The position numbers and the translations under genes are program-made. Shown here piece by piece: positions 622-47,767 of a stretch of 64,000 bases of DNA; position 1 is the first letter of the stretch; each line of letters starts with the position of its first letter. The stretch is from Xanthobacteraceae bacterium (GTDB lineage: Bacteria > Pseudomonadota > Alphaproteobacteria > Rhizobiales > Xanthobacteraceae): the NCBI GenBank assembly GCA_036395835.1, contig DASWCW010000273.1:2571-66570 (forward strand). Reading direction: 5' to 3'. The notes under the pieces were generated by a model. That model had not been told where the DNA came from. It saw only the letters and a list, made by a program, of their open reading frames with translations, and did not search any database.

Positions 622-646
622 AACGCGCAACCGAAAGGACGGTTCC
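622..646 (-). promoter_or_regulatory. EcfG/general-stress-type promoter motif GGAAC-N16-CGTT
   Basis: The plus strand reads AACG (622-625), 16 nt, GTTCC (642-646), which is GGAAC-N16-CGTT on the minus strand. It lies 97 nt upstream of the CDS start at 525. Confidence 0.55.
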
Positions 647-740
647 GGAGAGATCGATCTTGCAATTGCGGCCGCGGTCCGCCCGCAGGGTTTAGTCCCC
701 GATTCGCCCCCGAATGCGCACAAAGCGCGCGTACAGATCC

Positions 741-765
741 GGAACCGGGGCAGGGTTGAAGCGTT
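741..765 (+). promoter_or_regulatory. EcfG/general-stress-type promoter motif GGAAC-N16-CGTT upstream of otsA
   Basis: GGAAC 741-745, 16-nt spacer, CGTT 762-765. The GGGAGG RBS and the otsA ATG at 796 follow. Confidence 0.65.
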
Positions 766-795
766 ACTACCCTCGCCTGGATCGGGAGGTTAGCA

Positions 796-2244
796 ATGAG
801 GCTGGTCATCGTCTCCAATCGCGTCGCGTGTCCGAAAGCGGACGAACCCATGGAAGGCGGATTGGCAGCCGCGCTACTCCCCGCAGTCAGGACTTCCGGA
901 GCGATCTGGGTCGGCTCGAGCGGCCGCTTCATGGATCCGGCGGACAAGGAGTCCTTCGCGAAGGTCGAGGCGCTCGGCACCGGCGCGGTCGCGACCATCG
1001 ACTTGCCGCGCGAGGCTTATCAGAAATTCTACGAAGGCTTTGCCAATTCGGCGCTGTGGCCGGTCCTGCACTCGCGCACCGACCTGATCCGCACCGATGT
1101 CGAGCAATACGCCGCATACCGCGAGATAAACTCGCTGATGGCGCGCGCCGTGCTGCGCTTCGCTCGGCCCGACGCCATGTTCTGGATCCACGATTACCAT
1201 TACCTGACGCTCGGCAGCGAATTGCGGCGCCTGGGCATCGATCAGCCGGTCGGCTTCTTCCTCCATACCCCGTTCCCTGTCCGCAACACAATGGTGAGCC
1301 TTCCGCATCATCGCGAGCTGGTGCGGGCCATGCTCTGCTACGACCTGATCGGGTTCCAGACCGAGGAGGACCTGGCGAATTTCGCCGATTACCTCCAGCA
1401 GGAGCTGGGCTTGACCGGCACGGATTCATTTACCACCCAGCAGGGCGTCACCCGGCTCGGCACGTTCCCGATCGGGATCGACGTCGAGAGCTTCGCCGAG
1501 CGTGCGGTCAAATCCGCGGCACGTCCGGAGGTGTCGCGGCTGCGCTCCAGCTTGCAGGGCGCCCGGCTGGTGATCGGGGTCGATCGGGTCGATTATTCCA
1601 AAGGCTTGCCGAACCGCTTGCGGGCTTTCGATCGCATGCTCCAGTTCCAGCCCGGGCTGAAACGGGCAGTCACGCTGCTGCAGATCGCGGTGCCCTCGCG
1701 CGCGCAGATCGACGCTTATCGACAGCTCCAGTCGGAGCTTGCGGCGCTCGTCGGCGACATCAACGGGCGTCATTCCGAGGTCGATTGGATTCCGATCCGA
1801 TATTTAAACAAGGGCCTGTCGCAAACGAAATTGGCGGGCTTCTATCGCACCGCGCGCGTCGGTCTCGTGACCTCCTTGAACGACGGCATGAACCTGGTCG
1901 CGAAGGAATACGTGGCGGCACAAAACCCGCTCGACCCCGGCGTGCTGGTGCTTTCGAAATTCGCCGGCGCCGCCAGGCAGCTCGATACCGCGCTGCTGGT
2001 CAATCCCCACGATATCGACGCGGTCGCGCGAGCGATCTCGAGCGGGCTGGCGATGGCGCACGACGAGCGCCGGGAACGCTGGGGCGTCATGATGGATACG
2101 CTGCGGTCTTCCTCGCTCAAGGTGTGGATGAACAACTTCGTGTCGGCGCTCACCGCCTCGCCGCGGACGTCGCGGTTCGGGCTGGCGCCGGATGTCAGCG
2201 TCGAGCCGCCACCCCGCCGCCGCGCGGAACTCACCGCGATTTAA
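796..2244 (+). CDS. otsA: alpha,alpha-trehalose-phosphate synthase (GT20)
   Basis: 482 aa. MRLVIVSNRVA... start, and GT20/OtsA-like sequence throughout (WIHDYHYLTLG, VDYSKGL, LNDGMNLVAKEY). RBS GGGAGG lies 7 nt upstream. Confidence 0.93.
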   Translation: MRLVIVSNRVACPKADEPMEGGLAAALLPAVRTSGAIWVGSSGRFMDPADKESFAKVEALGTGAVATIDLPREAYQKFYEGFANSALWPVLHSRTDLIRTDVEQYAAYREINSLMARAVLRFARPDAMFWIHDYHYLTLGSELRRLGIDQPVGFFLHTPFPVRNTMVSLPHHRELVRAMLCYDLIGFQTEEDLANFADYLQQELGLTGTDSFTTQQGVTRLGTFPIGIDVESFAERAVKSAARPEVSRLRSSLQGARLVIGVDRVDYSKGLPNRLRAFDRMLQFQPGLKRAVTLLQIAVPSRAQIDAYRQLQSELAALVGDINGRHSEVDWIPIRYLNKGLSQTKLAGFYRTARVGLVTSLNDGMNLVAKEYVAAQNPLDPGVLVLSKFAGAARQLDTALLVNPHDIDAVARAISSGLAMAHDERRERWGVMMDTLRSSSLKVWMNNFVSALTASPRTSRFGLAPDVSVEPPPRRRAELTAI

Positions 2245-2328
2245 CCTCACTGAATTCTCGAAGCCCGAACTTGCCGTGGGCCGAAGCCGTTGGGGGCCCG
2301 TGGCGTCGATGGCCGTATGCAACGATTT

Positions 2329-2502
2329 TCAGAAGCCGACCCCGAGGTAGCGCACCAGCGACAATATGCCGAGGATGATCACGATCACTCGCAGGATCTG
2401 CTTGAGCCGGCCCTCGATGGGAAGCAGGTTCACGAGGTAAAGCACGAGAAGGACCACGACGAACGTGATCAGAACGCCGATCAGGATCGACAGCGCCGAC
2501 AT
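2329..2502 (-). CDS. small two-helix membrane protein
   Basis: The internal ATG at 2502 gives MSALSILIGVLITFVVVLLVLYLVNLLPIEGRLKQILRVIVIILGILSLVRYLGVGF (57 aa, two hydrophobic helices). The ORF track offers a longer 2329-2595 form whose extra N-terminus looks non-membrane. Confidence 0.5.
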   Translation of the reverse strand: MSALSILIGVLITFVVVLLVLYLVNLLPIEGRLKQILRVIVIILGILSLVRYLGVGF

Positions 2503-2768
2503 GGATGCCCCCGTTTGATCGATGGTGCGGTCGAGTGTAGCACCAAACGCATTGCGCGCCGAAACCGGAGTTCCCATGCCGGGAATAATCGGCATGACGA
2601 AACCGAATTGAGAATAGGAGAGCCAAACGGGTACTGCCGGGCGGCAATTGCTCGGGGTGAGCCTGCCCCGGCAGGGAAACTCGGGCGCCCACGAGCCTCT
2701 TGGGCCGGATCGGCAGGCCGCAAATGCGCGCCGCTGACGGCATTGCGGCGTCCCGAGCCGGCTCCGGT

Positions 2769-3050
2769 CTACCCGGACTTCGCCGCGGCGCCGGCCGTCA
2801 GCTTAGAACCGGATCCTCGCGCGTCGATGGGATAGGCATCACGTCCATAGGTCCAGGCCGGGCGAAACAGGCGATCCTCGCCCTGCACCAGCACCTGAGC
2901 CTCGCGGCCGGCTTGACCGTCGCGCTCGGCAAAGTCGATTGCCACCTGCAGGGCTTCCCTCTTGGTTGGATACGGACCCGAGTAGCGATAGCCGGCGCGT
3001 ATTTTCCACTCGCCATTGCGCTTGGTGACGAAATATTGGGCACGAGGCAT
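2769..3050 (-). CDS. DUF2188 domain protein
   Basis: 93 aa. MPRAQYFVTKRNGEWKIRAGYRYSGPYPTKREALQVAIDFAERDG matches my recollection of the DUF2188 pattern (YHV.k..g.W.v...g....s.h.tk.eAi..A). Confidence 0.75.
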   Translation of the reverse strand: MPRAQYFVTKRNGEWKIRAGYRYSGPYPTKREALQVAIDFAERDGQAGREAQVLVQGEDRLFRPAWTYGRDAYPIDARGSGSKLTAGAAAKSG

Positions 3051-3535
3051 CGCGATTGTTCCTGTCGCTGAAGAGCAAGGACTGATGTAGCGATAACGCC
3101 GGCCGCGCCAAATCGTTCATCTGCAAGCAAAATTCGCCGCACGCCGTGCCGGACCGGCGCATGGCCGGTTGCTGCCCGAAATTGGCACGTTCGTTGCAAA
3201 AGCAACCCCGCTATGAATGCTCGCATAGCCATCCGGCTTGAGCCGGAGGTCGGATCGACGCCGAAGTGTGACAGGGCGTCCGGCGGCGCCGCTCGTTTTC
3301 GCCCCGGGCACACGGTGGTTGCTTCATACCTCAACGCCACCCAAGCGGCGCTTGGGGAAACGAAAACCACAGGAATCTGCAGCCGCTCGGCTTGCGCAAA
3401 AGGGCAGAATCTGGCCATGAAATCAACACGGTCTGCTGGTCAACGATCATAAAGTTGCTCGTCTTGTCGGCCAAAGGACACGACGCGCACCAAAAGAGCG
3501 GGGCGCAGCAGGCTCCGGAAGGGAAGGGGTTGACG

Positions 3536-3964
3536 ATGAAGTTGGGCGCTTTGCTCGGCGCGCTACTTATGTTGCTGGGCATTACATCGGCTTCAGCAAC
3601 GATTCGAATTCACGACGATCCCGGGGGTCGGATCGACAGATATCTCCAAAGATTCGCGAAGCTCCGGAATTCCGGCGAGCGCATCATCGTCGACGGAACC
3701 TGCAACTCGGCCTGCACGCTGCTGTTGGGAACCATACCGCGCAGCCGGATCTGCGTGACCGAGCGCGCAAGTCTCGGGTTCCATGCGGCTTGGGTGTTCG
3801 ACGGCCAAGGCAATCAAGTCGAGAGTCCGACGTGGACCAGCGTGCTTTGGCGCAACTACCCGCAAACGATCCGCACTTGGATCAAACGGAATGGCGGCCT
3901 CACGCCGCGCATGATTTTTCTTCGCGGCAATGAATTGATGGCGATGTATCCGCTCTGCACCTGA
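3536..3964 (+). CDS. hypothetical periplasmic protein
   Basis: The internal ATG at 3536 gives MKLGALLGALLMLLGITSASA signal peptide. The mature part contains IIVDGTCNSACTLLLG. The upstream part of ORF 3392-3964 is not signal-like. Confidence 0.55.
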   Translation: MKLGALLGALLMLLGITSASATIRIHDDPGGRIDRYLQRFAKLRNSGERIIVDGTCNSACTLLLGTIPRSRICVTERASLGFHAAWVFDGQGNQVESPTWTSVLWRNYPQTIRTWIKRNGGLTPRMIFLRGNELMAMYPLCT

Positions 3965-4100
3965 TCCCAGTGCTCGAGGGCCGCGCCGCATCGCCTGCCG
4001 CGAACGCGGCCCGTTGCGGATCACACAGAGGCTCTAGGGTAAAGCGGCTCTCATTCGGCTTCGCTTCCGCCTGCCGAATCGTCGCACGATACGACCTCTC

Positions 4101-4421
4101 TCACGTACTGGGCGGCGGCGCGAAAAAGCAGCGGCGGCTTCCATCCGCGCGTTTGCAGCGCCAGTACGCCCCGTCCGGGCTGGGCTGCGTTTCGCTGAAC
4201 GGCACGAGCTCGTTGTCATACTCCTTGAGTATGTAGCCGATGCCGTTCATGGAGACCTTTTCACCGGGTACGGTGAAGCAGTCGCCCGCTCCGCAGCACC
4301 ATTCGCCCGCGGCGTTTCGAAAGCCGCCACGGTTGATCCAAAGATCATGCGCGGATGCGAGCGAACCGATCGCCAACAACGCCCCAACCGAACCAACAAG
4401 TGCGATCGACCGCAGTGTCAT
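4101..4421 (-). CDS. small secreted Cys-containing hypothetical protein
   Basis: The ATG at 4421 gives MTLRSIALVGSVGALLAIGSLASA signal peptide. The mature protein is about 80 aa with 5 Cys (WCCGAGDC...WRCK...RRC). A stress-type promoter lies immediately upstream. Confidence 0.55.
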   Translation of the reverse strand: MTLRSIALVGSVGALLAIGSLASAHDLWINRGGFRNAAGEWCCGAGDCFTVPGEKVSMNGIGYILKEYDNELVPFSETQPSPDGAYWRCKRADGSRRCFFAPPPST

Positions 4422-4440
4422 GGCAGTACCTCTGCGTTCC

Positions 4441-4465
4441 AACGCGGCACTTACCTCGGGGTTCC
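4441..4465 (-). promoter_or_regulatory. EcfG/general-stress-type promoter motif GGAAC-N16-CGTT
   Basis: The plus strand reads AACG 4441-4444, 16 nt, GTTCC 4461-4465. It lies 20 nt upstream of the ATG at 4421, implying a short leader containing AGAGG. Confidence 0.55.
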
Positions 4466-4540: not shown

Positions 4541-4565
4541 GGAACTTCATACGCGCGCCGGCGTT
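4541..4565 (+). promoter_or_regulatory. EcfG/general-stress-type promoter motif GGAAC-N16-CGTT
   Basis: GGAAC 4541-4545, 16-nt spacer, CGTT 4562-4565. It is divergent from the 4441-4465 motif and lies 69 nt upstream of the ATG at 4634. Confidence 0.55.
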
Positions 4566-4633: not shown

Positions 4634-4975
4634 ATGGCGAGATCGCCCGCCGCGCCGGGTACTCGAGCAGGAAGGGACCGGGGCCTGCGGTGTGTGACGC
4701 TTGCGGTTGCGGCCGTGTATTGGCTGCCGATCCCGCCGGTGGCCTATGCGGCCGAACCTCCGGGATCCGCGGCCGAGCGCGGCAAACAGCCGTCTACCGA
4801 TTCCGGACCGTCCGGCAATCTCAGCGAACAGCTGAAGCGATCCGAAGGCGTGATCAAGCCGCCCGAGAATGTCGATCCCGGGTTGCAGAAAAAGCCGCCC
4901 GACGATTCCGGCAAGATGCCGGTCATTCCGCCGCCGGGCAGTCCGGGCGGCGACCCGAGCGTCAAGCCGAAATAA
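4634..4975 (+). CDS. small secreted Pro/Gly-rich hypothetical protein
   Basis: ATG at 4634 is preceded by AAGGAG (4621-4626). MARSPAAPGTRAGRDRGLRCVTLAVAAVYWLPIPPVAYA is signal-like, possibly Tat-like. The mature part is PPENVDPGLQKKPPDDSGKMPVIPPPGSPGGDPSVKPK. Confidence 0.55.
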   Translation: MARSPAAPGTRAGRDRGLRCVTLAVAAVYWLPIPPVAYAAEPPGSAAERGKQPSTDSGPSGNLSEQLKRSEGVIKPPENVDPGLQKKPPDDSGKMPVIPPPGSPGGDPSVKPK

Positions 4976-4993: not shown

Positions 4994-5620
4994 TCACGCG
5001 GCGTCCCGGAGCGCCTGCTTGCACATGCGCAGGTCTCCGACAAAACGCCTATATTCCTGCTCATTGTCCTGGCGTTCGATGATGCGCAGCAGATACGAAG
5101 GATGGATGGTCACCGCCAACCGCATGCCGTCCCCGGCCTGAAGAATCTTCCCGCGAACGGAAGTGATCGATACGGTGCGACCGAGCAGGCTGCGGGCGGC
5201 GGTGGCCCCCAGGGCGACCACGAGTTCCGGCTTGACGATCGCGCGCTCGAGATCGTTCCACCACCGGCAGCGTTCGATCTCGTAGGCGTTCGGCCGCTTG
5301 TGCAGCCGGCGCTTGCCGCGCAGCTCGAACTTGAAATGCTTCACCGCGTTGGTGACGAACACCTTGTTGCGGTCGAGTCCCGCGTCCGCCAGGGCCCGGT
5401 CCAGCATACGGCCTGCCGGTCCGACGAACGGCTTGCCGGCGATGTCCTCGTCGGTTCCCGGCTGCTCGCCGACCAGCATCAGTGCCGCCGAAGTCGGGCC
5501 CTCCCCGGGAACGACCTGCGTGGCATTGCGATAGAGCGGACAGCGCGTGCATTGGGCTTCAGCGTCGCGAAGCTTGCGCAACGAGGTGATCTCGGCGGCT
5601 TCCATGCTCGAAGGGCCCAT
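4994..5620 (-). CDS. family 4 uracil-DNA glycosylase, UdgX-like
   Basis: Fe-S type CTRCPLY motif, motif A GEQPG, motif B HPSYLLR, and an inserted KRRLHKRP loop matching the KRRIH loop of Mycobacterium smegmatis UdgX. Start chosen at MGPSSMEAAE (5620); ORF track 4994-5740. Confidence 0.8.
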   Translation of the reverse strand: MGPSSMEAAEITSLRKLRDAEAQCTRCPLYRNATQVVPGEGPTSAALMLVGEQPGTDEDIAGKPFVGPAGRMLDRALADAGLDRNKVFVTNAVKHFKFELRGKRRLHKRPNAYEIERCRWWNDLERAIVKPELVVALGATAARSLLGRTVSITSVRGKILQAGDGMRLAVTIHPSYLLRIIERQDNEQEYRRFVGDLRMCKQALRDAA

Positions 5621-5787
5621 GTTGCGCGTCGCCTCGCCGATCCCGCTGCCGTCCAGCAAAACCGCAGGTCGCGCGCAGGGTTCCTCGACCGAGGTTCGAG
5701 CCCGGTGCGGTGAGCAGCCACTCGGACCGAGGAACTGCAATTGCTACAGTGCTCCCGCAATTTGCGGCAGTGGTGAGGAAAGCGAAC

Positions 5788-7172: not shown

Positions 7173-7197
7173 GGAACAGTCCTGCGCGCGCCGCGTT
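7173..7197 (+). promoter_or_regulatory. EcfG/general-stress-type promoter motif GGAAC-N16-CGTT
   Basis: GGAAC 7173-7177, 16-nt spacer, CGTT 7194-7197. It lies 31 nt upstream of the small ORF at 7228. Confidence 0.6.
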
Positions 7198-7227: not shown

Positions 7228-7380
7228 ATGCTCTCCACCATTCTCCTCATCATTCTGATTCTTCTGCTGGTTGGTGCGCTTCCGCGATGGGGTTACCACA
7301 GGCGCGGTTATGGACCGAGCGGGCTGATCGGGCTCGTTCTTGTCATCATTCTGATCCTGGCGCTACTGCACCGGATCTGA
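7228..7380 (+). CDS. DUF3309-like small membrane protein (50 aa; below the ORF-track size cut-off)
   Basis: My translation is MLSTILLIILILLLVGALPRWGYHRRGYGPSGLIGLVLVIILILALLHRI, followed by a stop. It has two hydrophobic helices flanking a basic loop, as in DUF3309. A stress promoter lies upstream. Confidence 0.7.
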   Translation: MLSTILLIILILLLVGALPRWGYHRRGYGPSGLIGLVLVIILILALLHRI

Positions 7381-7457: not shown

Positions 7458-7483
7458 GGAACCATTCGGGATCGACTGACGTT
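7458..7483 (+). promoter_or_regulatory. EcfG/general-stress-type promoter motif GGAAC-N17-CGTT
   Basis: GGAAC 7458-7462, 17-nt spacer, CGTT 7480-7483. It lies 91 nt upstream of the protease ATG at 7574. Confidence 0.6.
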
Positions 7484-7573: not shown

Positions 7574-9076
7574 ATGATTCGCCAGGTCAAATCCGGTGCC
7601 GAGCTGGCTCGCGCTCCCGCGGCCAATCGGCGATTCGGCTGCGCCTCGGCTTTGACCCTCGCGATTGCCGCCGTCGCGGCAATTTCGATCCCCGGCTATC
7701 CGGGACCCGCATTTGCCGCCGAAGTCAATGCGCATGGCGCGCCGCACCCGGTCGGTTTTGCCGATATCGCCGCAAAGGTGAAATCGGCGGTGATCGGCGT
7801 GCGCGTGAAGGTGGAGAGCACGCAATCGCAGATGCCCGACCAGGAGCTTCCGTTCCCTCCCGGCTCGCCGTTCTACAAATTCTTCGGAACTCCGGATCAA
7901 AACCCGCAAAAGCGCCGATTCGGCACCGCTCTGGGCTCCGGTTTCTTCATCTCGTCCGATGGCTATGCGGTGACCAACAACCACGTGGTCGAAAACGGCC
8001 GGAATTTCGAGATCACGACGGACGACGGCAAGACCTACTCGGCCAAGGTGATCGGCACGGATTCGAAGACCGACGTCGCGCTGATCAAGGTGGACGGCCG
8101 CAATGATTTCTCCTACGTCCAATTCTCGAGCACCGAGCCGCGGGTCGGCGATTGGGTGCTCGCGATCGGCAATCCGTTCGGGCTCGGCGGCACCGTCACC
8201 GCCGGCATCGTCTCGGCCCGCGGGCGCGACATCGGTGCGGGATCGTTCGACGATTTCATCCAGATCGATGCGCCGGTCAACAAGGGCAATTCCGGCGGCC
8301 CGACTTTCGACATGCAGGGCGATGTGATCGGGGTCAATGCCGCGATTTTCTCGCCGTCGGGGGGCTTCATCGGCATCGCTTTCGCAATTCCCGCCGATAC
8401 CGTGAAGATCGTGGTGGAGCAGCTCAAGGAGAGAGGATCGGTCGCCCGCGGCTGGCTCGGCGTGCAGATTCAGACCGTCACGCCCGAGATCGCCGAAAGC
8501 CTCGGGCTCAAGAAAGCCGAAGGTGCTCTGGTGGCCGAGCCGCAGCCCGGCACGCCGGCGATCAAAGCCGGAATCAAATCGGGCGACATCATCACCTCGC
8601 TGGACGATCAGCCGGTGAAGGATTCGCGCGATCTCGCCAGAAAGATCGCTGGCTTGCCGCCCGGGACCTCGATCAAGCTCGGCACCGTGCGCGGCGGCCA
8701 ACCCAAGACCCTGACGGTGACGCTCGGCGAGCTTCCGAACACGCCGGCCCGCGCCGAATCCAAACAGCAGCCGAGCGAGCGGCCGAATGCTCCGAGCGAA
8801 GAGATCGGCCTCGGGCTGTCGCTCGCCCCGGCCCGCAAGGTCGCGGGCGCCGGCAACCAGGGAGTGGTCGTGACCCAGGTCGACCCCGGCGGGAACGCCG
8901 CGGACAGCGGCCTCGAAGCCGGCGACGTGATCCTGGACGTCGGCGGAAAGGTGGTGAACACGCCGAGCGACGTGCGCAACGCAGTCAATGAGGCCCGCGG
9001 TCGCTCGAAGCACACGGTGCTGCTGCGCGTCAAAACCGGGCAGAATATCCGGTTCGTCACCGTCCCGGTCGGCTGA
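7574..9076 (+). CDS. Do/DegP/HtrA-family periplasmic serine endopeptidase with two PDZ domains
   Basis: Catalytic triad contexts VTNNHVV, DVALIKV and GNSGGP. There are two PDZ-like segments. Start MIRQVKSG at 7574 follows GAGGGAGAA, and the N-terminal part of ORF 7400-9076 is unlikely to be coding. Confidence 0.92.
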   Translation: MIRQVKSGAELARAPAANRRFGCASALTLAIAAVAAISIPGYPGPAFAAEVNAHGAPHPVGFADIAAKVKSAVIGVRVKVESTQSQMPDQELPFPPGSPFYKFFGTPDQNPQKRRFGTALGSGFFISSDGYAVTNNHVVENGRNFEITTDDGKTYSAKVIGTDSKTDVALIKVDGRNDFSYVQFSSTEPRVGDWVLAIGNPFGLGGTVTAGIVSARGRDIGAGSFDDFIQIDAPVNKGNSGGPTFDMQGDVIGVNAAIFSPSGGFIGIAFAIPADTVKIVVEQLKERGSVARGWLGVQIQTVTPEIAESLGLKKAEGALVAEPQPGTPAIKAGIKSGDIITSLDDQPVKDSRDLARKIAGLPPGTSIKLGTVRGGQPKTLTVTLGELPNTPARAESKQQPSERPNAPSEEIGLGLSLAPARKVAGAGNQGVVVTQVDPGGNAADSGLEAGDVILDVGGKVVNTPSDVRNAVNEARGRSKHTVLLRVKTGQNIRFVTVPVG

Positions 9077-9106: not shown

Positions 9107-9532
9107 TTATTGGGTCGACCTGTTCTTGAGCAGATCGCGAATTTCCGTCAGCAGCACTTCCTGACGCGATGGAGGCGGCGCGGCGGCCGGCTCTGCCGTT
9201 TCGAGCCGCTTCAAGCGGTTCATCAGCCGCGCGACCAGGAACATCACCCAGGCGATGATCACGAAGTTGATCACGATGGTGAAGAAATTTCCCCAGGCCA
9301 GAACTGCGCCTTGCTTTTTGGCTTCGGCAAGTGTGGTTGCGCTCACGCGGCCGGAGAGGGCGGCGAAATAATTGGAGAAGTCGAGGCCGCCGGAAACCGC
9401 GCCGACGACCGGCATGAAGAGATCGCCGACGAGGGATTCCACGATCTTGCCGAATGCGGCGCCGATGATGACACCGACCGCCAAGTCCACGACGTTGCCG
9501 CGCAACGCAAATTCCCGGAACTCCTTGAGCAT
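9107..9532 (-). CDS. mscL: large-conductance mechanosensitive channel
   Basis: 141 aa. [31 protein letters not shown]... is the canonical MscL N-terminus. Confidence 0.95.
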
Positions 9533-10048: not shown

Positions 10049-10163
10049 CGAATTCTCCTGTTCCGGCGCGATCCTGCCGCACAACGCCGGGCGGGCGAGG
10101 TCGGTTGCCCGATCGCGCCGCGACCGGACGGAACGGAATGCGGAGCATGCGACGGATTTCCCC

Positions 10164-10188
10164 GGAACTTGGTGCCGGCTTTGGCGTT
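10164..10188 (+). promoter_or_regulatory. EcfG/general-stress-type promoter motif GGAAC-N16-CGTT upstream of the ECF sigma gene
   Basis: GGAAC 10164-10168, 16-nt spacer, CGTT 10185-10188. Confidence 0.65.
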
Positions 10189-10388: not shown

Positions 10389-11090
10389 ATGAGTAACGGC
10401 AAAAAGCACCGCGCGGCATTTCACGCCGGGGACGCGCGCGAGCAGCGTGGGGCCGCGCGGGACGCGCATCTCAGGCCGTCGTCGCGCGATCCGCGCGTGC
10501 AGGCCGGCCGAATGGCTCAACTCCGGACGGCCCCGCCCCGGGGCGACCAGCTCGACGACGCGATGCGGGAAGCCATGCTCGGCGCGGTCCCGCGCCTGCG
10601 TGCTTTCGCCATCTCTCTGTGCGGAAGCGTCGACAAAGCCGACGACCTCGTGCAGGAGACACTGCTGCGCGCGCTTTCCCACATCGACCAGTTCGAGCCT
10701 GGCACCAACATGCCGGCATGGCTCTTCACGATTCTCCGCAACCTGTTTCGATCCGACTATCGCAAGCGCCGCCGCGAGGTCGAGGACGACGACGGCTCTT
10801 ATGCGGAGACCCTCAAATCGCAGCCCGAGCAGGCCGGCCGCCTGGAGTTCGAGGAGCTTCCCGGCGCACTCGCCAAGCTGCCCCCGGATCAGCGCGAAGC
10901 CTTGATCCTGGTTGGAGCTTCGGGCCTTTCCTATGAGGAGGCGGCGCAGATCTGCGGCTGCCCGATCGGAACGATCAAAAGCCGCGTCAATCGCGCGCGA
11001 GGAAGGCTGGCGGAGCTGTTGTCGATCGAAAGCGTCGATGACCTCGGACCCGATCAGACCATGCGCGCGGTGCTCATGAACGAGTGTTAG
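10389..11090 (+). CDS. ECF-type RNA polymerase sigma factor, EcfG-like (ECF15-like)
   Basis: Region 2 is DDLVQETLLRALSHIDQFEPGTNMPAWLFTILRNLFRSDYRKRRRE. Region 4 is LPPDQREALILVGASGLSYEEAAQICGCPIGTIKSRVNRAR. The start is uncertain: ATG at 10389 (high GC3 from here), 10512 or 10563. The stop at 11090 is firm. Confidence 0.85.
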   Translation: MSNGKKHRAAFHAGDAREQRGAARDAHLRPSSRDPRVQAGRMAQLRTAPPRGDQLDDAMREAMLGAVPRLRAFAISLCGSVDKADDLVQETLLRALSHIDQFEPGTNMPAWLFTILRNLFRSDYRKRRREVEDDDGSYAETLKSQPEQAGRLEFEELPGALAKLPPDQREALILVGASGLSYEEAAQICGCPIGTIKSRVNRARGRLAELLSIESVDDLGPDQTMRAVLMNEC

Positions 11091-15832: not shown

Positions 15833-15858
15833 GGAACCTCTTCCCCAAAACCGCCGTT
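15833..15858 (+). promoter_or_regulatory. EcfG/general-stress-type promoter motif GGAAC-N17-CGTT
   Basis: GGAAC 15833-15837, 17-nt spacer, CGTT 15855-15858. It lies 65 nt upstream of the PBP ATG at 15923. Confidence 0.6.
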
Positions 15859-27270: not shown

Positions 27271-27296
27271 AACGTCTAGCCTCGGCCACCTGTTCC
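27271..27296 (-). promoter_or_regulatory. EcfG/general-stress-type promoter motif GGAAC-N17-CGTT upstream of glgX-treZ-treY
   Basis: The plus strand reads AACG 27271-27274, 17 nt, GTTCC 27292-27296. It lies inside the lower-GC glgB/glgX spacer, 109 nt upstream of the glgX ATG. Confidence 0.6.
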
Positions 27297-35051: not shown

Positions 35052-35077
35052 AACGACGGGGGGCGACCTTGGGTTCC
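35052..35077 (-). promoter_or_regulatory. EcfG/general-stress-type promoter motif GGAAC-N17-CGTT upstream of glgE-treS-glgB
   Basis: The plus strand reads AACG 35052-35055, 17 nt, GTTCC 35073-35077. It lies 42 nt upstream of the glgE ATG. Confidence 0.6.
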
Positions 35078-35250
35078 GGACCGACGCGGGTGAGAACCCG
35101 CAAGCCTCTGATTTCGTTGTCATTCGCCAATCTGCGCCGGATCGGGCAAGAGCACAATATCGACGCGGCCTCGGCCCCGTGGCAAGCCCCGGTTTGTCGT
35201 GCGCCATGCCCCGGTTCGCGCGCCCCGCTCTGTCCCTGTGAGCTGGCCCA

Positions 35251-37806: not shown

Positions 37807-38095
37807 TGTGCGACGTCACAACTGCCGTCGGACTGTAACGCCGAAGGACGCGAAAAAGTGCCGGCTCACAGCATCAAATATCTGGGAGTGCAGGGTTTTT
37901 GCCGCGGTAACCTGAACAGATGTTCATCGTGGGCGGCGATGCGAGTGGCTCGTGCAGTTGCGCTCTTCGAAGGCTCACGGCCGATCCAACGCGTCTGCAG
38001 ACGGCAACGACATTGCGCATGAACTGATGTTCTATTTGGCCTGGTCACCCTCACCAACTTGGGGGCGCGAGCGAGATTCGCGACCATTCGACCGA

Positions 38096-38120
38096 GGAAC
38101 TTTTGCGGGCTCGGAGCGTT
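38096..38120 (+). promoter_or_regulatory. EcfG/general-stress-type promoter motif GGAAC-N16-CGTT
   Basis: GGAAC 38096-38100, 16-nt spacer, CGTT 38117-38120. It lies 34 nt upstream of the ATG at 38154. Confidence 0.65.
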
Positions 38121-38538: not shown

Positions 38539-38985
38539 TTGCTCCCCGGCGTCAGGGATCTGAAAGAACGGCTCGACGCCGCGATGAAGACCGGCGCATG
38601 GTCGACCGTGGCCGGGGTGGCGGCGCTGGTCATGTTGGGCTTCCTGTGCGCCGCGCTGTTCCTCTATCTGCAGAATTGGCGAGGCTCGATCGTCGCCTGT
38701 CTCATTCTAGCCGGCGCATTCCTGCTGGTGGTCCTGATCGCGATCGCGGCGATCGCGCTCGTGCGTCGGCGGCAGGCGCAACTGGCGCGCGCTCGCGCGC
38801 AGGCGAACCAAGCCGCCGGCCAATGGTTGCGGGATCCCGTCGTCGTGACCACCGCCCTGCAGGTTGCGAGGGCGCTGGGGTTGCGGCGCGCGGCTCCCGT
38901 GTTGCTGCTGGGTGCGTTCGTGGTGGGATTGGTGCTCAGCCGGACGGCCGCCAAGGCCGGGCATCCTGCCGGTCCCGAATCATAA
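38539..38985 (+). CDS. YqjE-like (phage holin family) membrane protein
   Basis: TTG at 38539 lies 6 nt after AGGAGGA and directly follows the DUF883 stop. There are two or three TM helices (VAGVAALVMLGFLCAALFLYL, IVACLILAGAFLLVVLIAIAAIAL). The pairing resembles yqjD-yqjE. Confidence 0.65.
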   Translation: MLPGVRDLKERLDAAMKTGAWSTVAGVAALVMLGFLCAALFLYLQNWRGSIVACLILAGAFLLVVLIAIAAIALVRRRQAQLARARAQANQAAGQWLRDPVVVTTALQVARALGLRRAAPVLLLGAFVVGLVLSRTAAKAGHPAGPES

Positions 38986-41101: not shown

Positions 41102-41127
41102 GGAACATTGCGGACCGCGCCGACGTT
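41102..41127 (+). promoter_or_regulatory. EcfG/general-stress-type promoter motif GGAAC-N17-CGTT upstream of ligD
   Basis: GGAAC 41102-41106, 17-nt spacer, CGTT 41124-41127. It starts 6 nt after the glucosidase stop and lies 157 nt upstream of the ligD GTG. Confidence 0.6.
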
Positions 41128-41283: not shown

Positions 41284-43899
41284 GTGCCGCTAGCCCGCCG
41301 CAAAGCCAAATCCGCTTCGCGCACCAAAGTCGAGGCGCGAGGCCGGCGCGATCCGCTCAAGACCTATCGCGAGAAGCGGGATTTCCGGCGAACCGCCGAA
41401 CCGGAGCCCCGCGTCAAGCCCGGCACCGGCTGGCAATTCGTGGTGCAAAAGCACGCCGCGCGGCGGCTGCACTACGATCTGCGCCTCGAGCTCGACGGCG
41501 TGCTCAAGAGCTGGGCGGTGACGCGGGGGCCGAGCCTGGTCCCGGGCGAGAAGCGCCTCGCGGTCCAGACCGAAGACCACCCGATGGATTATCTGGAATT
41601 CGAAGGCAACATCCCCGAGGGCGAGTACGGCGGCGGCTCGGTCATCGTTTGGGACCGCGGCCATTGGGTGCCGGACGGCGATCCGCATCACGGCCTCAAG
41701 AAGGGTCATCTCACGTTTTCGCTGGACGGCGAGCGGCTCAAGGGCCGCTGGCATTTGGTGCGCATGCGGCCGCGCCCCGGCGAGAAAAAACAGCAATGGT
41801 TGCTGTTCAAGGCCCGCGACGAATACGCGCGCGAGGCGTCGGATCCGGCGATCGTCGAGGAGGCCACGACCTCGTTTCTCACTGGACGCGAGATCGAGGA
41901 CGTCGCCGCGGAGGACGAGTTGCGCCCGGACCACGCCGAGCGCACCGAGGTCGCGCGCCGGCGCACGGCGGAAATTCCCGATCCGGCGCGGCTTCCCGGC
42001 GCCAAGAAAGCCATGCTTCCGGTATTCGTCGAGCCGAGTTTGGCGCAATTGGCCGACCGGCCGCCGAAGGGCAAAGACTGGGTTCACGAAATCAAATTCG
42101 ACGGCTATCGCATCCAGGCTCGCATCGACGGCCGCAGTATCAAGCTGCTCACCCGCAAGGGGCTCGATTGGACTCAGCGTTTCCAACCGGTTGCCACCAC
42201 ATTGAAAAAGCTGCGGCTGGGCTCGGCCCTGATCGACGGCGAGATCATCGTCGAGGCTCAGTCCGGCGTACCGAGCTTCAGCGAACTGCAGCAAGCGCTA
42301 AGCTCCGGCAGCAAGGATCGGTTTCTCTATTACGTATTCGATCTGTTGTATTGCAACGGCGTCGACTTGCGGAACGTGGCGCTCGTCGAGCGCAAGGCGT
42401 TGCTGGATCGAGTCCTGGAGCCGATTGCCGAGAGCGCCAATGTTCGCTTCAGCGAGCATCTCGAGCAGGATGGCGCGACCATGCTCGATCACGCCTGCCG
42501 GATGGGACTCGAAGGGATCATATCCAAGCGCAGAAACGAGCCCTATCGGTCCGGCCGGGGCGAGCACTGGATCAAGAGCAAATGCGTCGAGCGGCAGGAA
42601 TTCGTGCTGCTCGGTTACGTGCCCTCCACGGTAGCGAAGGGCGCGGTCGGCTCGCTGGTGGTGGGTTATTACGAGGCCGGAAAGCTCGTCTACGCCGGGC
42701 GCGTCGGAACCGGGTTTTCCGCCGACGTGGCGCGCTCGCTGCGCAAGCAGCTCGAGAAAATCAAGGCGGCAAGGCCCGTATTGGGCAAGCCGCTTCCCGC
42801 GGGGGCCGACAAGGGCGTGATCTGGGCCGAGCCTCGTCTCGTTGCCGAAGTCGAATTCCGCGGCTGGACCCACGATGACGTGCTTCGGCAGGCATCCTAC
42901 AAGGGGCTGCGGGAGGACAAGCCGCCGGAGGAAGTCGTGCGCGAGAAGGCGTCGGGATCGGCGAGAAAAACCAAGACGGCGGAGCGGGCCGACACCGCGA
43001 ACGGGATCGCGGGGGTTCGGCTCACCCACCCGGAGCGCATCCTGTGGGAAGGCCAGGGCGTCACCAAACAGGGCCTCGCCGAATTCTACGTCGAGATCGC
43101 CGATTGGATCCTGCCGCACCTGGTCGGACGGCCGCTGAGCCTCGTGCGCTGTCCAACCGGCGCCATGCATCAATGCTTCTATGCGAAGCATGCCTGGGCC
43201 GGGCTCGCCAAAGCCATTCGGCCCGTGGACGTCGGTGAAGCGAAGCCGATGCTCGCGATTTACGATTTGGAGGGGCTGATCGGCCTGGTGCAGGCAGGTG
43301 TGCTCGAGATCCACCCGTGGGGATCCACGGTCGAGGATCTCGAACGGCCCGACCGCCTGATCTTCGATCTCGATCCGGGCGAGGGCGTCGCCTGGGACGC
43401 GATGCTGGCCGCCGCGGCGGAAGCCCGGCAACGGCTCGAGGATCTGGGCCTGGAAAGTTTCCTGAAGACCTCCGGCGGAAAAGGCCTTCACGTCATGGTG
43501 CCGATCGAGCCGGAACTCGATTGGGATCGCGTCAAGGCGTTCACCAAAACCATCACCGATGCCATGGCGGCAGACGCGCCCGATCGTTACGTAGCGACCA
43601 TGTCGAAGCAATTGCGGCGCGGGAAGATCTACGTCGATTATCTGCGCAACGGCCGCGGGGCGACCGCGGTCGCCGCCTATTCGACGCGGGCCCGGCCGGG
43701 CGCGCCGGTGTCCACGCCGCTCGAATGGCAGGAGCTGTCGAAGGCGATCAAGCCCGATCATTTCAACATCGACAACCTGCGGCAGCGGCTCGCCTTCCTA
43801 AAACGCGATCCATGGCAGGGCTTTTTCGACATCCGTCAGCGTCTGCCGCAGTCGGCGGTGCCGGCCGCCGGCAAGAAATCCCGGCGTCGACGCTCATGA
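41284..43899 (+). CDS. ligD: ATP-dependent DNA ligase D (phosphoesterase-ligase-polymerase order)
   Basis: 871 aa. The N-terminal 3'-phosphoesterase domain has FVVQKHAARRLHYDLRLE. The ligase adenylation motif is EIKFDGYR. The C-terminal primase-polymerase domain has LIFDLDPG...SGGKGLHV. GTG start follows AGGAAGGGA. Confidence 0.92.
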   Translation: MPLARRKAKSASRTKVEARGRRDPLKTYREKRDFRRTAEPEPRVKPGTGWQFVVQKHAARRLHYDLRLELDGVLKSWAVTRGPSLVPGEKRLAVQTEDHPMDYLEFEGNIPEGEYGGGSVIVWDRGHWVPDGDPHHGLKKGHLTFSLDGERLKGRWHLVRMRPRPGEKKQQWLLFKARDEYAREASDPAIVEEATTSFLTGREIEDVAAEDELRPDHAERTEVARRRTAEIPDPARLPGAKKAMLPVFVEPSLAQLADRPPKGKDWVHEIKFDGYRIQARIDGRSIKLLTRKGLDWTQRFQPVATTLKKLRLGSALIDGEIIVEAQSGVPSFSELQQALSSGSKDRFLYYVFDLLYCNGVDLRNVALVERKALLDRVLEPIAESANVRFSEHLEQDGATMLDHACRMGLEGIISKRRNEPYRSGRGEHWIKSKCVERQEFVLLGYVPSTVAKGAVGSLVVGYYEAGKLVYAGRVGTGFSADVARSLRKQLEKIKAARPVLGKPLPAGADKGVIWAEPRLVAEVEFRGWTHDDVLRQASYKGLREDKPPEEVVREKASGSARKTKTAERADTANGIAGVRLTHPERILWEGQGVTKQGLAEFYVEIADWILPHLVGRPLSLVRCPTGAMHQCFYAKHAWAGLAKAIRPVDVGEAKPMLAIYDLEGLIGLVQAGVLEIHPWGSTVEDLERPDRLIFDLDPGEGVAWDAMLAAAAEARQRLEDLGLESFLKTSGGKGLHVMVPIEPELDWDRVKAFTKTITDAMAADAPDRYVATMSKQLRRGKIYVDYLRNGRGATAVAAYSTRARPGAPVSTPLEWQELSKAIKPDHFNIDNLRQRLAFLKRDPWQGFFDIRQRLPQSAVPAAGKKSRRRRS

Positions 43900-45425
43900 T
43901 CGCCCGGCGCATCCTCCCATTCGCGCTGGCGTTGGCGGTGCTTGCGCCGGCGTGGGCGGAAGAGCCGCCGGGGCGGCCGCCGGCCAATGCGCAACGCGAG
44001 CAGCAGCAGCAACCCGGCCCCGGCGTTCTGCGGCTGCTGCCGGGCGATGCCGTCGGCGAGCACTCGATCGAGCTTGCGTCCGGCAAGCTCGCCTACACGG
44101 CGACTGCCGGCACTTTTTCGCTGATCGACCAATCCGGCGAGCGCAAGGCCGACGTTTTCTACACCGCCTATGTGGCCGGCGGCGACACCGCGAGCCGGCC
44201 GGTGACCTTCGTGTTCAACGGCGGCCCCGGCGCCGCATCGGCCTTTCTGCATCTGGGGTTGGTCGGTCCGAAGCTCGTCGACTTCGGCCCGCAGGGCCGC
44301 GACGGCGCCGCCGCGCGGCTGCGCGAAAATCCCGAGACGTGGCTGGCGTTCACCGACCTCGTTCTGATCGATCCGGTGGGCACGGGCTGGAGCCGCGCGC
44401 CGAAGCCCGACGACGCGAGCGCGTTCTACAACATCCGCCGCGACGCGGAATCGATTGCGAAAATCATCGCGCTCTATGTCGCCAAGAACGGCCGCAGCGG
44501 CTCGCCCAAATATCTGCTGGGCGAAAGCTACGGCGGTTTCCGCGCGGTGAAAGTCGCGAAGATTCTGCAGGAGGATCAGGGCATCGTCGTTTCCGGCATC
44601 GTCATGGTGTCGCCGCTGCTGGATTCCGAATTTCTGTTCGGCAGCAGCCGATCCCCGCTCCGGGCGGCGCTGCAGCTCCCCAGCCTGATCGCGACCGAGC
44701 TCGAGCGTCAGCACGCCTTCAGCGCCGCCGCGCTCGCGGAGGGCGAGCTTTTCGCCATGACCGAATATCTCGCCACGCTTGCCGGGCCGCCGCCGACCGG
44801 GGCGAAGGCCGATGCATTCTACGGCAGACTCGCGCAGTTCTCCGGCCTGCCGCTGGAGACCGTGGTCAAGACCCGCGGGTTCATTCGCGACGTCTATTTG
44901 AAGAACCTGCGTGCCGGCCAGGATCAGGTGGTGAGCCGTTACGACGCAAGCTTCGCGGCGCCGGACCCCTATCCGGAAGCCGACTCGTCGCGCGGCCCGG
45001 ATCCCATCCTCGATGGCTTCGTGCGGGCGCTCGGCGGGATGTTCGTGGGCTACGCGCGCAACGAGCTCGGATTCAAGACCGACATCACCTATGCGCTGCT
45101 GGCCTCCGAGGTCAGCCACAAATGGAACTGGCACGAGGGCGGGGGCTGGTCGCGGCCAAGCGTGCAGGACGACATTCGCGACCTGCTGGCGCTCGATCCC
45201 TCGCTGCGCATGCTGGTCGCGCACGGTTTGAGCGACATGGTGCTGCCCTATGCGGTCTCCCGCTACGTGATCGACCATCTGCCGCAGATCGGCGCGCCCG
45301 GCCGCGTCGAGCTCAAGCTCTACCGCGCAGGGCACATGTTCTATTTGGACGATGCGCCGCGCAGGGCGTTCACGGCGGAGGCGAGGGGGTTTTATCAGGC
45401 GATCCCGTCGAACCCGACGCGTTGA
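43896..45425 (+). CDS. S10-family serine carboxypeptidase, secreted
   Basis: The ATG at 43896 forms an ATGA overlap with the ligD stop. MIARRILPFALALAVLAPAWA is a signal peptide. FVFNGGPGAAS and the catalytic GESYGG motif are present. Confidence 0.82.
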   Translation: MIARRILPFALALAVLAPAWAEEPPGRPPANAQREQQQQPGPGVLRLLPGDAVGEHSIELASGKLAYTATAGTFSLIDQSGERKADVFYTAYVAGGDTASRPVTFVFNGGPGAASAFLHLGLVGPKLVDFGPQGRDGAAARLRENPETWLAFTDLVLIDPVGTGWSRAPKPDDASAFYNIRRDAESIAKIIALYVAKNGRSGSPKYLLGESYGGFRAVKVAKILQEDQGIVVSGIVMVSPLLDSEFLFGSSRSPLRAALQLPSLIATELERQHAFSAAALAEGELFAMTEYLATLAGPPPTGAKADAFYGRLAQFSGLPLETVVKTRGFIRDVYLKNLRAGQDQVVSRYDASFAAPDPYPEADSSRGPDPILDGFVRALGGMFVGYARNELGFKTDITYALLASEVSHKWNWHEGGGWSRPSVQDDIRDLLALDPSLRMLVAHGLSDMVLPYAVSRYVIDHLPQIGAPGRVELKLYRAGHMFYLDDAPRRAFTAEARGFYQAIPSNPTR

Positions 45426-45452
45426 CCCGAAGGTTTGCAGCACGAAGCCGCG

Positions 45453-45872: not shown

Positions 45873-45945
45873 GGCAATCACCTTGTTGGCCTTTCGTTAT
45901 CGGCGGCCGCGAGCAAGCTGCCGTGACAAGTCGACATCGCGACGG

Positions 45946-46458
45946 TTATTCGACCGAATGCGACAGCGTACCGGATCCCTCGATGGTGCCGTCGTTGTGA
46001 TACCAATCGACGCTGCTGTGATCGGATGAAAAAACCAGGCGAACATTGTCGGGCTTATAGCCGGGAGAGGCGTTGATCACTGTCGTCCTGCCTTCGAAGG
46101 TCCGGTCATCGGTCATTTTGCCGACCAGCCCGATCTCATTGAGGAGCTTTCCATCGAAATCGTAGATCAGCACTTTCCCGGTATTCATGTCCGGGTTCAG
46201 CGTCAGGCGATACGTTCGGGTGGCCTGCGGCTCGCCGCCGAGGAACCGCCGATCGACCTTGCCGGCATAGGTGCCCGGCATGTCCGCGGGCGCTGGCACG
46301 GCCTGGGCGATAAGCCGCTCGGACCGGGCCGTGCCGTCCGCAGCCGGTCCAGCGAACTGAGGCTCCGCCTGATGCAGGCGCACGGTTTCGACGGCGTTCG
46401 CCCAGACCGACGTCGGCGCAAGCAGCATAGCTGCGGCGATCAGCAAGATTTGAACCAC
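45946..46458 (-). CDS. hypothetical secreted protein
   Basis: 170 aa. GTG start, MVQILLIAAAMLLAPTSVWA signal peptide. No family I recognise. Confidence 0.5.
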   Translation of the reverse strand: MVQILLIAAAMLLAPTSVWANAVETVRLHQAEPQFAGPAADGTARSERLIAQAVPAPADMPGTYAGKVDRRFLGGEPQATRTYRLTLNPDMNTGKVLIYDFDGKLLNEIGLVGKMTDDRTFEGRTTVINASPGYKPDNVRLVFSSDHSSVDWYHNDGTIEGSGTLSHSVE

Positions 46459-46765
46459 GGTATGCCCCCGGGACCGCGCGATCGAGCCTAGCGGAGGCGA
46501 TTTGGCGCTTCAACACGGGCCTGGACGCCGGTTGCCCAAATCCGAGGCAGCGCCATTCATCCGAGGTTCAGCATGCGAAGCCCTATTGCAAAGGCAGGAC
46601 GGGCGGAACTCGGTCTTGTCAAGCCTGCTGCCGCGCGTCATATCCTGTTGCGGGGATGTCGGGGATGATTCGGGGGCGCCCCGCCATAGCGTTGGCCATC
46701 TGAGCTACAATTTTGCCAGATTTGGTCCATAGCAGGCCTGCGGGCACGGGTAAGGGGATTCGTTC

Positions 46766-47233
46766 ATGAAGCCGCTGCGAATCGAGATGACCCGGGATTC
46801 TGAATCCGGGCGTGCCGGCATTCCCGCCGCCGATGCCCAGCTTGCGCGACGCATTCTCATTGTCGAGGACAATTACTTCGTCGCGCATCAATGCGAGAGC
46901 GCGCTCGTCGAAGCCGGTTACGACGTCGTCGACATCGTCGAAACCGCGGACCAAGCCGTTCAAGCAGCGCTGGACCGCCGGCCGGCACTGGTCCTGATGG
47001 ACATCTATCTTCCCGGCAAGCGCGACGGCATCGACGCTGCGGTCGAGATCTTGCAGCGCTTCGGCATTCGCAGCATCTTCGCTTCGGCGCTCGCCGATAC
47101 GGCCGTGAAGACGCGGGCCGAGCTCGCACAACCGCTGGCGTGGCTCGCCAAGCCCTTCAACGATCGCAAGCTCGTGGCGACGGTCAAATCCGCGCTCGAC
47201 GAAGTGAATGCTCTGCCGCAGACGCAACCCTGA
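46766..47233 (+). CDS. single-domain response regulator (receiver only), orphan
   Basis: ILIVEDNYFVA, phospho-acceptor context LVLMDIYLPG, and KPF near the C-terminus. A leader of about 25 aa precedes the receiver domain. No histidine kinase gene is nearby. Confidence 0.82.
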   Translation: MKPLRIEMTRDSESGRAGIPAADAQLARRILIVEDNYFVAHQCESALVEAGYDVVDIVETADQAVQAALDRRPALVLMDIYLPGKRDGIDAAVEILQRFGIRSIFASALADTAVKTRAELAQPLAWLAKPFNDRKLVATVKSALDEVNALPQTQP

Positions 47234-47377
47234 TCCTTGTTCGGCGCCGCCCTGGCGGACGGCTGCAATCGACGCAGCTGTATTTCGGAAGCGCGACCGC
47301 CGCAAGCGCAGCCGGACGAATCCGGAACCTTGAATCGGCGCCTTCGCGTTAAGGTGTCCGATCCGCCGGAGAACCAC

Positions 47378-47713
47378 ATGCCCAAGCTCGGCACGGTGGC
47401 GCTGATCGGGGTATCGGGGAAGCGCTACGAGTTCGATATCTATCTGCGCGAGGACGCATTCAAGGCACTGGGTGCCGTGTATTTCCTCGCCAAACGCATT
47501 CCATTCGCCGAAGCGGAGGCGGAATACACCTGGATCTACGTGGGCGAGAGCGCCGACATTTCCCAGCGGCCGCTTTCCGTCAAGCACAAGCCGTGCATCG
47601 ACGCCAACGAAGCGAACTGCCTCTGTCTCCACCTGGAGGATGACGCGCAGGCGCGGACCGCCATCGTGACCGATCTCGCCCGGGCCTATGATCCGCCCTG
47701 CAATCGCGACTAG
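47378..47713 (+). CDS. hypothetical protein (111 aa)
   Basis: The internal ATG at 47378 gives MPKLGTVALIGVSGKRYEFDIYLREDAFKALGAVYFLAKR...WIYVGESADISQR... The composition is protein-like. No confident family. Confidence 0.45.
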   Translation: MPKLGTVALIGVSGKRYEFDIYLREDAFKALGAVYFLAKRIPFAEAEAEYTWIYVGESADISQRPLSVKHKPCIDANEANCLCLHLEDDAQARTAIVTDLARAYDPPCNRD

Positions 47714-47742
47714 ACCACCGATCCGCAACGCGGCCGACCGGG

Positions 47743-47767
47743 GGAACCAGGGGCCGAATCGGCCGTT
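47743..47767 (+). promoter_or_regulatory. EcfG/general-stress-type promoter motif GGAAC-N16-CGTT with no downstream ORF
   Basis: GGAAC 47743-47747, 16-nt spacer, CGTT 47764-47767. It begins 30 nt after the stop at 47713. Confidence 0.55.

Follow-up and report, generated by a model that had tools for sequence, protein, structure and literature searches.

Why should a single stretch of DNA from an uncultured soil alphaproteobacterium carry more than a dozen copies of a promoter signature that is spread over whole genomes in other species, and do these copies act as promoters? The stretch (hereafter the window) comprises 64,000 nucleotides of contig DASWCW010000273.1 from a Xanthobacteraceae bacterium, and the signature is the bipartite motif GGAAC-N16/17-CGTT, thirteen copies of which had been listed within its first 48 kb in an initial annotation. 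EcfG-type (ECF15) sigma factors act as master regulators for the general stress response of Alphaproteobacteria. The experimentally defined EcfG consensus of Sphingopyxis granuli is GGAAC-N16-CGTT (PMC7083833), and a related form is described in Sphingomonas melonis (PMC6599016). We consider it very probable (roughly 85%) that RNA polymerase with an EcfG-type sigma factor uses the sites as promoters, that at least 13 and probably 16-17 of them lie within ~50 kb, and that they serve the general stress response. The initial annotation had itself proposed a physical cluster of EcfG-type general-stress promoters; this is supported by the consensus, its conservation in relatives, a resident EcfG-family sigma factor, the overlap with known regulons and the density of the sites.

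A pattern search of the window returned 15 exact matches, compared with 1.09 expected from dinucleotide-preserving shuffles (about one per window had been estimated earlier); the largest value among 100 shuffles was 4. The thirteen listed sites were all recovered at their coordinates and strands, and all of them fall, correctly oriented as had been claimed, within the 7,767 nt of non-coding DNA defined by a curated gene list. The underlying gene model was built from codon statistics, then refined with Pfam and with the genes called on public contigs that are near-identical to the window. When the intergenic segments are simulated by a first-order Markov model, 0.156 sites are expected (maximum 2 in 2000 runs) for the 13 observed. 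The motif is 47 times denser in non-coding than in coding DNA, and the probability that at least 13 of 15 matches fall in non-coding DNA is 1e-10. Furthermore, matches are concentrated at the two spacings of the consensus: GGAAC and CGTT are found 0 times with N14, once with N15, 9 times with N16, 6 times with N17, once with N18 and 0 times with N19. The two remaining exact motifs lie inside genes, at 20207-20231(-) in a YkuD gene and at 29219-29244(+), antisense in glgB. They agree with the approximately one chance match expected and look like chance occurrences.

A rival explanation traces the matches to base composition, the genome being GC-rich (65%), as are the spacers of several sites, or else to some dispersed repeat or mobile element in which both boxes happen to occur. 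This explanation has a negligible probability. It is refuted by the shuffle and Markov values, by the spacer control and by the retention of the boxes amid divergence described below. Moreover, the 60-nt flanks of the 13 sites show a mutual identity of 26-27%, which is the random level, and the sites therefore do not belong to a dispersed repeat.

The placement of the sites is that of promoters. All five sites located between tandem genes have the productive orientation, and twelve sites lie 19-200 nt upstream of a start codon (Table 1), very close to the 20-200 nt first reported. The gene names originally given to the targets were each confirmed by Pfam, as for otsA (Glyco_transf_20, E = 1.7e-110) and the DUF3309 protein (E = 7.9e-18). 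The thirteenth site, 47743-47767, had been described as having no open reading frame (ORF) downstream. This holds, but the site is not an orphan: a match to the Rfam family RF00519 begins ~23 nt downstream, and the site precedes a gene for a small RNA (sRNA) resembling that family.

Conservation was assessed in related metagenome-assembled genomes and metagenome contigs (labels L...) with identities of 75-91% in protein or 79-88% in DNA. Among organisms with a source label, Variibacter/Xanthobacteraceae come nearest, with ~70% GlgE identity, and no close relative is found among cultured reference genomes. The GGAAC and CGTT boxes of twelve of the 13 exact sites persist in relatives, while the spacers and flanks vary. 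L001 and L002, in which DegP is 88% and 85% identical, respectively, and the DNA ~82-86% identical, retain six and eight syntenic sites with boxes that are invariant in the alignments. The boxes of the glgE promoter persist in L161 (GlgE 86% identical) and L162 (75%), where the flanks can no longer be aligned. At site 47743, both boxes are invariant in six genomes with 79-88% DNA identity, and the spacer and upstream flank vary. In the more distant L163 (GlgE 72% identical, labelled Variibacter sp. by its source), otsA has an exact motif 25 nt upstream. At these 12 of 13 sites the boxes thus appear to be under purifying selection relative to the surrounding non-coding DNA.

Table 1. Predicted promoters, sigma factor gene and sRNA gene of the window; "exact" denotes GGAAC-N16/17-CGTT, and distances (nt) run to the start codon of the gene faced.
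Feature	Position	Strand	Motif or evidence	Gene faced or adjacent	Distance	Kept in
EcfG-type promoter	622..646	-	exact	154-aa exported protein (61-525)	96	L002
EcfG-type promoter	741..765	+	exact	otsA (796-2244)	30	L002
EcfG-type promoter	4441..4465	-	exact	106-aa secreted protein (4101-4421)	19	L001, L002 (boxes kept, spacers changed)
EcfG-type promoter	4541..4565	+	exact	113-aa secreted protein (4634-4975; gene called on L164)	68	L001, L002
Probable variant promoter	5660..5684	-	GGAAC-N16-GGTT	UDG-family gene (4994-5620)	39	L001, L002
EcfG-type promoter	7173..7197	+	exact	DUF3309 (7228-7380)	30	L001, L002
EcfG-type promoter	7458..7483	+	exact	degP/htrA (7574-9076)	90	L001, L002
Probable variant promoter	10083..10108	-	GCAAC-N17-CGTT	Host_attach/baeRF12 gene (9587-10048)	34	L001, L002
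EcfG-type promoter	10164..10188	+	exact	EcfG paralogue	200	L001, L002
EcfG-family (ECF15-like) sigma factor	10389..11090	+	Pfam Sigma70_r2, Sigma70_r4_2, PhyR_sigma2	DUF3775 (11164-11595) next		
EcfG-type promoter	15833..15858	+	exact	class A penicillin-binding protein (15923-18847)	64	L001, L002
EcfG-type promoter	27271..27296	-	exact, in 420-nt glgB-glgX spacer	glgX-treZ-treY (27162 down to 20541)	108	
EcfG-type promoter	35052..35077	-	exact	glgE-treS/mak-glgB (35010 down to 27583)	41	L161, L162
Probable variant promoter	37837..37862	-	GGCAC-N17-CGTT	149-aa secreted Gly/His-rich protein (37339-37788; gene called on L081)		L161
EcfG-type promoter	38096..38120	+	exact	DUF883 (38154-38528) + holin-X/YqjE-like gene (38539-38985)	33	L141, L161
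EcfG-type promoter	41102..41127	+	exact	ligD (41284-43899) + S10 peptidase (43896-45425)	156	L141, L159
EcfG-type promoter of sRNA gene	47743..47767	+	exact	sRNA gene		six genomes (boxes invariant)
sRNA, ~87 nt, MmgR/SuhB (alpha-r8, RF00519)-like	~47775..47861	+	Rfam match, terminator, fold; 5' end inferred			
Possible weak variant promoter	48693..48718	-	GGAAC-N17-TGTT	SnoaL-like gene (48137-48646)	46	L141, L119, L142

In consensus and spacing of the -35 and -10 boxes, the sites are identical to the EcfG (ECF15) promoters of Bradyrhizobium diazoefficiens, Sinorhizobium meliloti (RpoE2), Caulobacter crescentus (SigT), S. melonis and S. granuli. Their placement relative to start codons is similar to that in S. 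melonis, where motifs concentrate within 100 bp of the coding sequence (PMC6599016). [quoted passage not shown] The regulon of S. melonis, for instance, includes glgX-treZ-malQ, Ku, a host-attachment protein and small secreted proteins (PMC6599016). In B. diazoefficiens, otsA and otsCB are both EcfG-dependent and essential for osmotolerance (PMC8092242). The same divergent layout is found here, with otsA opposed to a unit comprising a transporter of the major facilitator superfamily (MFS) and otsB, and with an EcfG-type promoter on each side (622 and 741). The greater part of this unit lies left of the window and was read on the near-identical contigs L164-L166 (e.g. L165:4958-9730), where it continues into an MFS sugar transporter (otsC-like), otsB and a GH15 gene. 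It differs from otsCB of B. diazoefficiens in the 154-aa exported protein that precedes the transporter and in the GH15 gene after otsB; in addition, the TreYZ and GlgE/TreS pathways, with EcfG-type promoters of their own, are only 20-35 kb away. As to NHEJ, ligD4 and ku3-ku4 of S. meliloti are under EcfG-type regulation, the RpoE2 dependence of ligD4 having been proven with lacZ fusions (PMC6379672), and ku-ligD of S. granuli is EcfG-dependent with the consensus GGAAC-N16-CGTT (PMC7083833). As at these loci, a LigD with several domains (by Pfam a phosphoesterase, a ligase and a primase-polymerase domain) stands behind an EcfG-type promoter in the window. In contrast to them, ligD has no neighbouring ku gene within the window and is apparently co-transcribed with the gene of an S10-family serine peptidase, which it overlaps by 4 nt.

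Many ECF sigma factors use an AAC-containing -35 box, and several of the targets are envelope genes (degP, PBP1A, YkuD and the secreted proteins). The motif might consequently be read by another ECF family with a similar GGAAC -35 box, RpoE-like for example, and the cluster would then be an envelope-stress regulon. We regard this as very unlikely. The full bipartite consensus, with its CGTT -10 box and its 16/17 spacing, is the published EcfG signature (PMC7083833, PMC6599016), and the non-envelope targets otsA, glgE/treS, ligD and the sRNA agree with EcfG regulons (PMC8092242, PMC6379672). In addition, the sole sigma factor gene of the window encodes an EcfG-type protein.

This gene, annotated initially as an ECF sigma paralogue, proved to be EcfG-type by Pfam, by structural match and by NCBIfam. 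The best PDB match of its product is 5UXX (E = 4.5e-52 over residues 60-214), and the next entry, the ECF sigma factor SigE, follows at 1.7e-19; 5UXX, which the tool output names only "RNA polymerase sigma factor", is EcfG of Bartonella quintana. NCBIfam PRK12540 is matched with a score of 308.2 for a cut-off of 307. No NepR-like ORF is present in the 200-nt leader of the gene. In place of the canonical context, with a co-transcribed nepR and a divergent phyR, the gene is flanked by the Host_attach gene and by DUF3775. Since it has no adjacent nepR or phyR, it is a non-canonical EcfG copy in the sense of PMC3892343. Like EcfG2 of Rhizobium etli and EcfG1 of S. granuli, it is an EcfG-family sigma factor encoded away from phyR/nepR, with an EcfG-type promoter upstream. 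SigU of C. crescentus is a further non-canonical EcfG paralogue. The protein of the window differs from such paralogues in being embedded in a dense block of putative targets and in possessing a conserved N-terminal extension of ~55 residues (10389-10553), relative to the 164-residue chain of 5UXX. The start of the protein (MSNGKK...) and the RDPRVQAGRMAQ segment of this extension are conserved in L001 and L002.

The paralogue might be a dedicated local regulator of the cluster, the canonical, NepR-controlled EcfG firing only the promoter of the paralogue in a cascade. In favour of this, the paralogue lies mid-cluster with an EcfG-type promoter of its own and no adjacent nepR or phyR, and L001 and L002 conserve both the paralogue and its promoter; EcfG paralogues that act in a hierarchy or in parallel are also on record (PMC7083833, PMC3892343). 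However, the paralogues of S. granuli recognise the same promoters and one of them dominates (PMC7083833), so that targets cannot be assigned from sequence alone. Furthermore, L163 has an EcfG-type otsA promoter, yet the gene calls for the 22 kb retrieved around it include no sigma factor gene. We hold such a cascade to be rather doubtful. It would in any case be a refinement of the explanation by EcfG-type promoters and no true alternative to it.

The sRNA gene behind site 47743 was recognised by an Rfam E-value scan, in which RF00519 is matched over its full length at 47791-47867 (40.7 bits for a gathering threshold of 41, E = 5e-7). At gathering thresholds, the Rfam scan of the window gave no match, the sRNA being 0.3 bits short. 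For the close homologue of L111 the score is 50.5 bits, and for that of L093 it is 40.3 bits. The minimum-free-energy fold of the 88-nt sequence (-40 kcal/mol, z = -3.0) shows two hairpins at the 5' end, then UUUCCUCCCU in single-stranded form, then an intrinsic terminator. The core CCUCCCU is invariant in 10 of 10 aligned sequences; covariation lends the alignment fold little support (covariation term -0.54 kcal/mol). A scan of metagenomes for an EcfG motif followed by the sRNA core retrieved 74 stretches, 56 of them unique, and ~19 of the 56 were judged by eye to be genuine alpha-r8-like loci. Most of the remaining stretches are chance or ribosome-binding-site-like matches, and the count alone is not evidence, because in so large a collection a pattern of 20 bases, searched in 52 gap configurations, should meet chance hits. 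The scan recovered ~11 relatives of the window sRNA plus several other lineages. Thirteen of its loci were given to Rfam, and 6 scored above the RF00519 threshold, among them L121 with 61.1 bits, L122 with 47.8, L124 with 46, L099 with 44 and L133 with 43.8. In several metagenomic lineages (L111, L093, L109, L120, L121, L122, L124, L099 and L133), an exact EcfG motif lies ~21-37 nt 5' of the start of the RF00519 match.

The window sRNA shares with MmgR of S. meliloti and SuhB of S. granuli TFA the RF00519 sequence and structure, the single-stranded CCUCCCU and the terminator, and its 5' end is predicted to extend ~10-16 nt beyond that of MmgR, which measures 77 nt. The regulation differs. MmgR is controlled by NtrC and AniA/PhaR (PMC8401924, PMC12542648), and SuhB is LysR-regulated and needed for stress resistance, although most of its regulon is described as not depending on the general stress response (bioRxiv 10.64898/2025.12.09.693200), whereas the sRNA gene of the window stands behind an exact EcfG motif. 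EcfG-dependent sRNAs are known in GsrN of Caulobacter (PMC5869019) and ReC64 of R. etli (PMC3892343), with which the window sRNA has in common an EcfG-type promoter and C-rich loops. Site 47743 is thus predicted to drive an sRNA of the MmgR/SuhB family, a modestly novel point, as is the resident NepR-less EcfG copy.

The density of the sites had been presented as higher than expected for a regulon, and this holds against each reference used. In published work, the direct regulon of S. granuli TFA counts 79 transcription units over the whole genome (PMC7083833), and for B. diazoefficiens 72 motif sequences are given (PMC6599016, methods). At these densities, for which genome sizes were taken from general knowledge, 48 kb is expected to hold 0.4-0.8 sites, and the Poisson probability of at least 13 is 5e-12 to 4e-16. 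A background of 1.52 Mb of other, mostly Mesorhizobium, loci contains 8 exact motifs, or 0.25 per 48 kb. The cluster is therefore ~15-60 times denser than the published regulon averages and the background sample. Contrary to published EcfG regulons, which are spread over whole genomes, 13-17 promoters are grouped here in ~50 kb. By a conservative count, 20 of the 40 protein genes of the first 48 kb belong to units headed by an exact site, a number that variants and longer operons would raise. The exact motif is absent beyond 48.7 kb in the window and from the 10 kb to its left. A literature search for a described EcfG "island" returned nothing relevant.

Several observations weigh against a reading of the sites as EcfG promoters, or limit it. 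First, two exact motifs lie inside genes, and the one in glgB has no counterpart in the glgB genes of L161-L163, so that an exact match alone is no proof of function. Second, site 27271 is the only one of the 13 without cross-species support; it lies in a spacer that is missing from the relatives. Third, the ligD promoter of L161 is GGAAC-N17-CAGTT, with a degenerate -10 box. Fourth, phyR, nepR and HWE/HisKA2 kinase genes are all absent from the window, and a complete partner-switch system is assumed. Finally, the cluster is called unusually dense by comparison with other species, with ~19 kb of flanking DNA devoid of exact sites and with 1.52 Mb of unrelated loci.

With these reservations, the mechanism that we favour is that of the known EcfG general stress response, of which the window would be an unusually condensed instance in an uncultured soil lineage. 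Upon stress, phosphorylated PhyR would sequester NepR, the anti-sigma factor, and free EcfG, following the established pathway. Freed EcfG would then direct transcription from GGAAC (-35) and CGTT (-10) boxes 16-17 nt apart, and the units of the cluster, with the operon extents presumed in Table 1, would be switched on together in this organism. Three trehalose routes would be induced, namely otsA with the divergent otsC-like/otsB unit, treYZ, and treS, as would the GlgE alpha-glucan pathway. The same would hold for envelope functions, including PBP1A, an L,D-transpeptidase, DegP, a number of small proteins that are secreted or in the membrane, and probably MscL, along with LigD end-joining repair; together the units suggest a theme of desiccation, osmotic stress and rewetting. 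The second, NepR-less EcfG copy could supply feed-forward or amplification, and the MmgR/SuhB-family sRNA would add a post-transcriptional arm.

A wider reading, which we advance only tentatively and consider improbable on balance, sees in the locus a self-contained stress/desiccation survival island of ~55 kb, kept as a unit in an uncultured soil lineage. This island would have its own NepR-less EcfG, a single-domain response regulator resembling the PhyR receiver and an EcfG-wired MmgR/SuhB sRNA. The clustering itself would be selected, e.g. for joint inheritance, joint transfer or amplification exerted locally by the resident sigma factor, and the alpha-r8 family would have been plugged recurrently into the general stress response in environmental Alphaproteobacteria. 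Should the cluster of EcfG promoters be real, it would give a compact view of how an uncultured soil alphaproteobacterium deploys its general stress response, readable from one 50-kb stretch. It would also offer a natural test bed, cloneable as one fragment, for the rules of EcfG promoter strength, for paralogue hierarchy and for the physical condensation of regulons. The link between EcfG and the MmgR/SuhB-family sRNA would join two stress-resistance systems that are treated as largely separate in S. granuli. The gain is incremental rather than conceptual, because the mechanism is textbook.

Beyond the exact sites, a one-mismatch scan of the window yielded the four variants of Table 1. The three at 5660, 10083 and 37837 are probably real, since they are conserved in more distant relatives. 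Among these, the variant before the Host_attach/baeRF12 gene has a parallel in S. melonis, in which an EcfG-dependent host-attachment gene carries a GCAAC...CGTT motif (PMC6599016, Table 1, #3063); mscL (9107-9532) may be co-transcribed with this gene. The retention of the weaker variant at 48693 says little, because the whole surrounding region is highly conserved. With the variants included, the predicted number of promoters is probably 16-17. Two further candidates were discarded. AGAAC-N17-CGTT at 35093-35118, 5' of malQ, is not conserved in L161-L163. GGAAC-N18-CGTT at 47324-47350(+), 27 nt 5' of a 111-aa ORF (47378-47713), is probably not functional, its boxes not being conserved in most relatives.

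The response regulator encoded beside the sRNA locus, at 46766-47233(+), is a single-domain protein. PhyR receiver domains are among its best PDB matches: 4QIC carries that name, and 3N0R, 4G97 and 5UXV are likewise PhyR entries. The PFxFATGY motif is the hallmark of SdrG-type regulators. It is absent here, and an assignment to the SdrG/MrrA type is not claimed.

Signal peptides are visible in the translations of the proteins at 61-525, 4101-4421, 4634-4975 and 37339-37788. The class A penicillin-binding protein gene is followed on the same strand by genes for a 329-aa protein and for a YkuD L,D-transpeptidase. The spacer between glgB and glgX (27163-27582, 420 nt) is relatively AT-rich; in L161-L163 the two genes abut, giving one six-gene operon from glgE to treY. 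In the interval 2244-4100 the coding signal is weak and the genes are all small: 2329-2502(-) encodes a THIVI_2564 membrane protein, 2769-3050(-) DUF2188 and 3536-3964(+) an exported protein of 142 aa. No EcfG-type site accompanies any of them.

Three possible origins of the locus were examined and set aside. Megablast of positions 1-25000 against PLSDB gave only short matches of ~72% identity to treZ and to the penicillin-binding protein gene, and a plasmid origin was dropped. A tRNA-anchored island was rejected, no tRNA genes being present in the window. A compositional island or obviously recent transfer was discarded because the GC content stays at 0.635-0.671 over the whole window and makes no step where the cluster begins or ends. 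Beyond 48.7 kb, ordinary metabolism genes are found, encoding a branched-chain amino-acid ABC transporter, AspDH, PrpD, an acyl-CoA dehydrogenase and TauD. On the other side, the near-identical contig L166 carries a phage-type integrase (L166:196-1233) just past the otsB-GH15 unit, at a place where other contigs have a glycosyltransferase.

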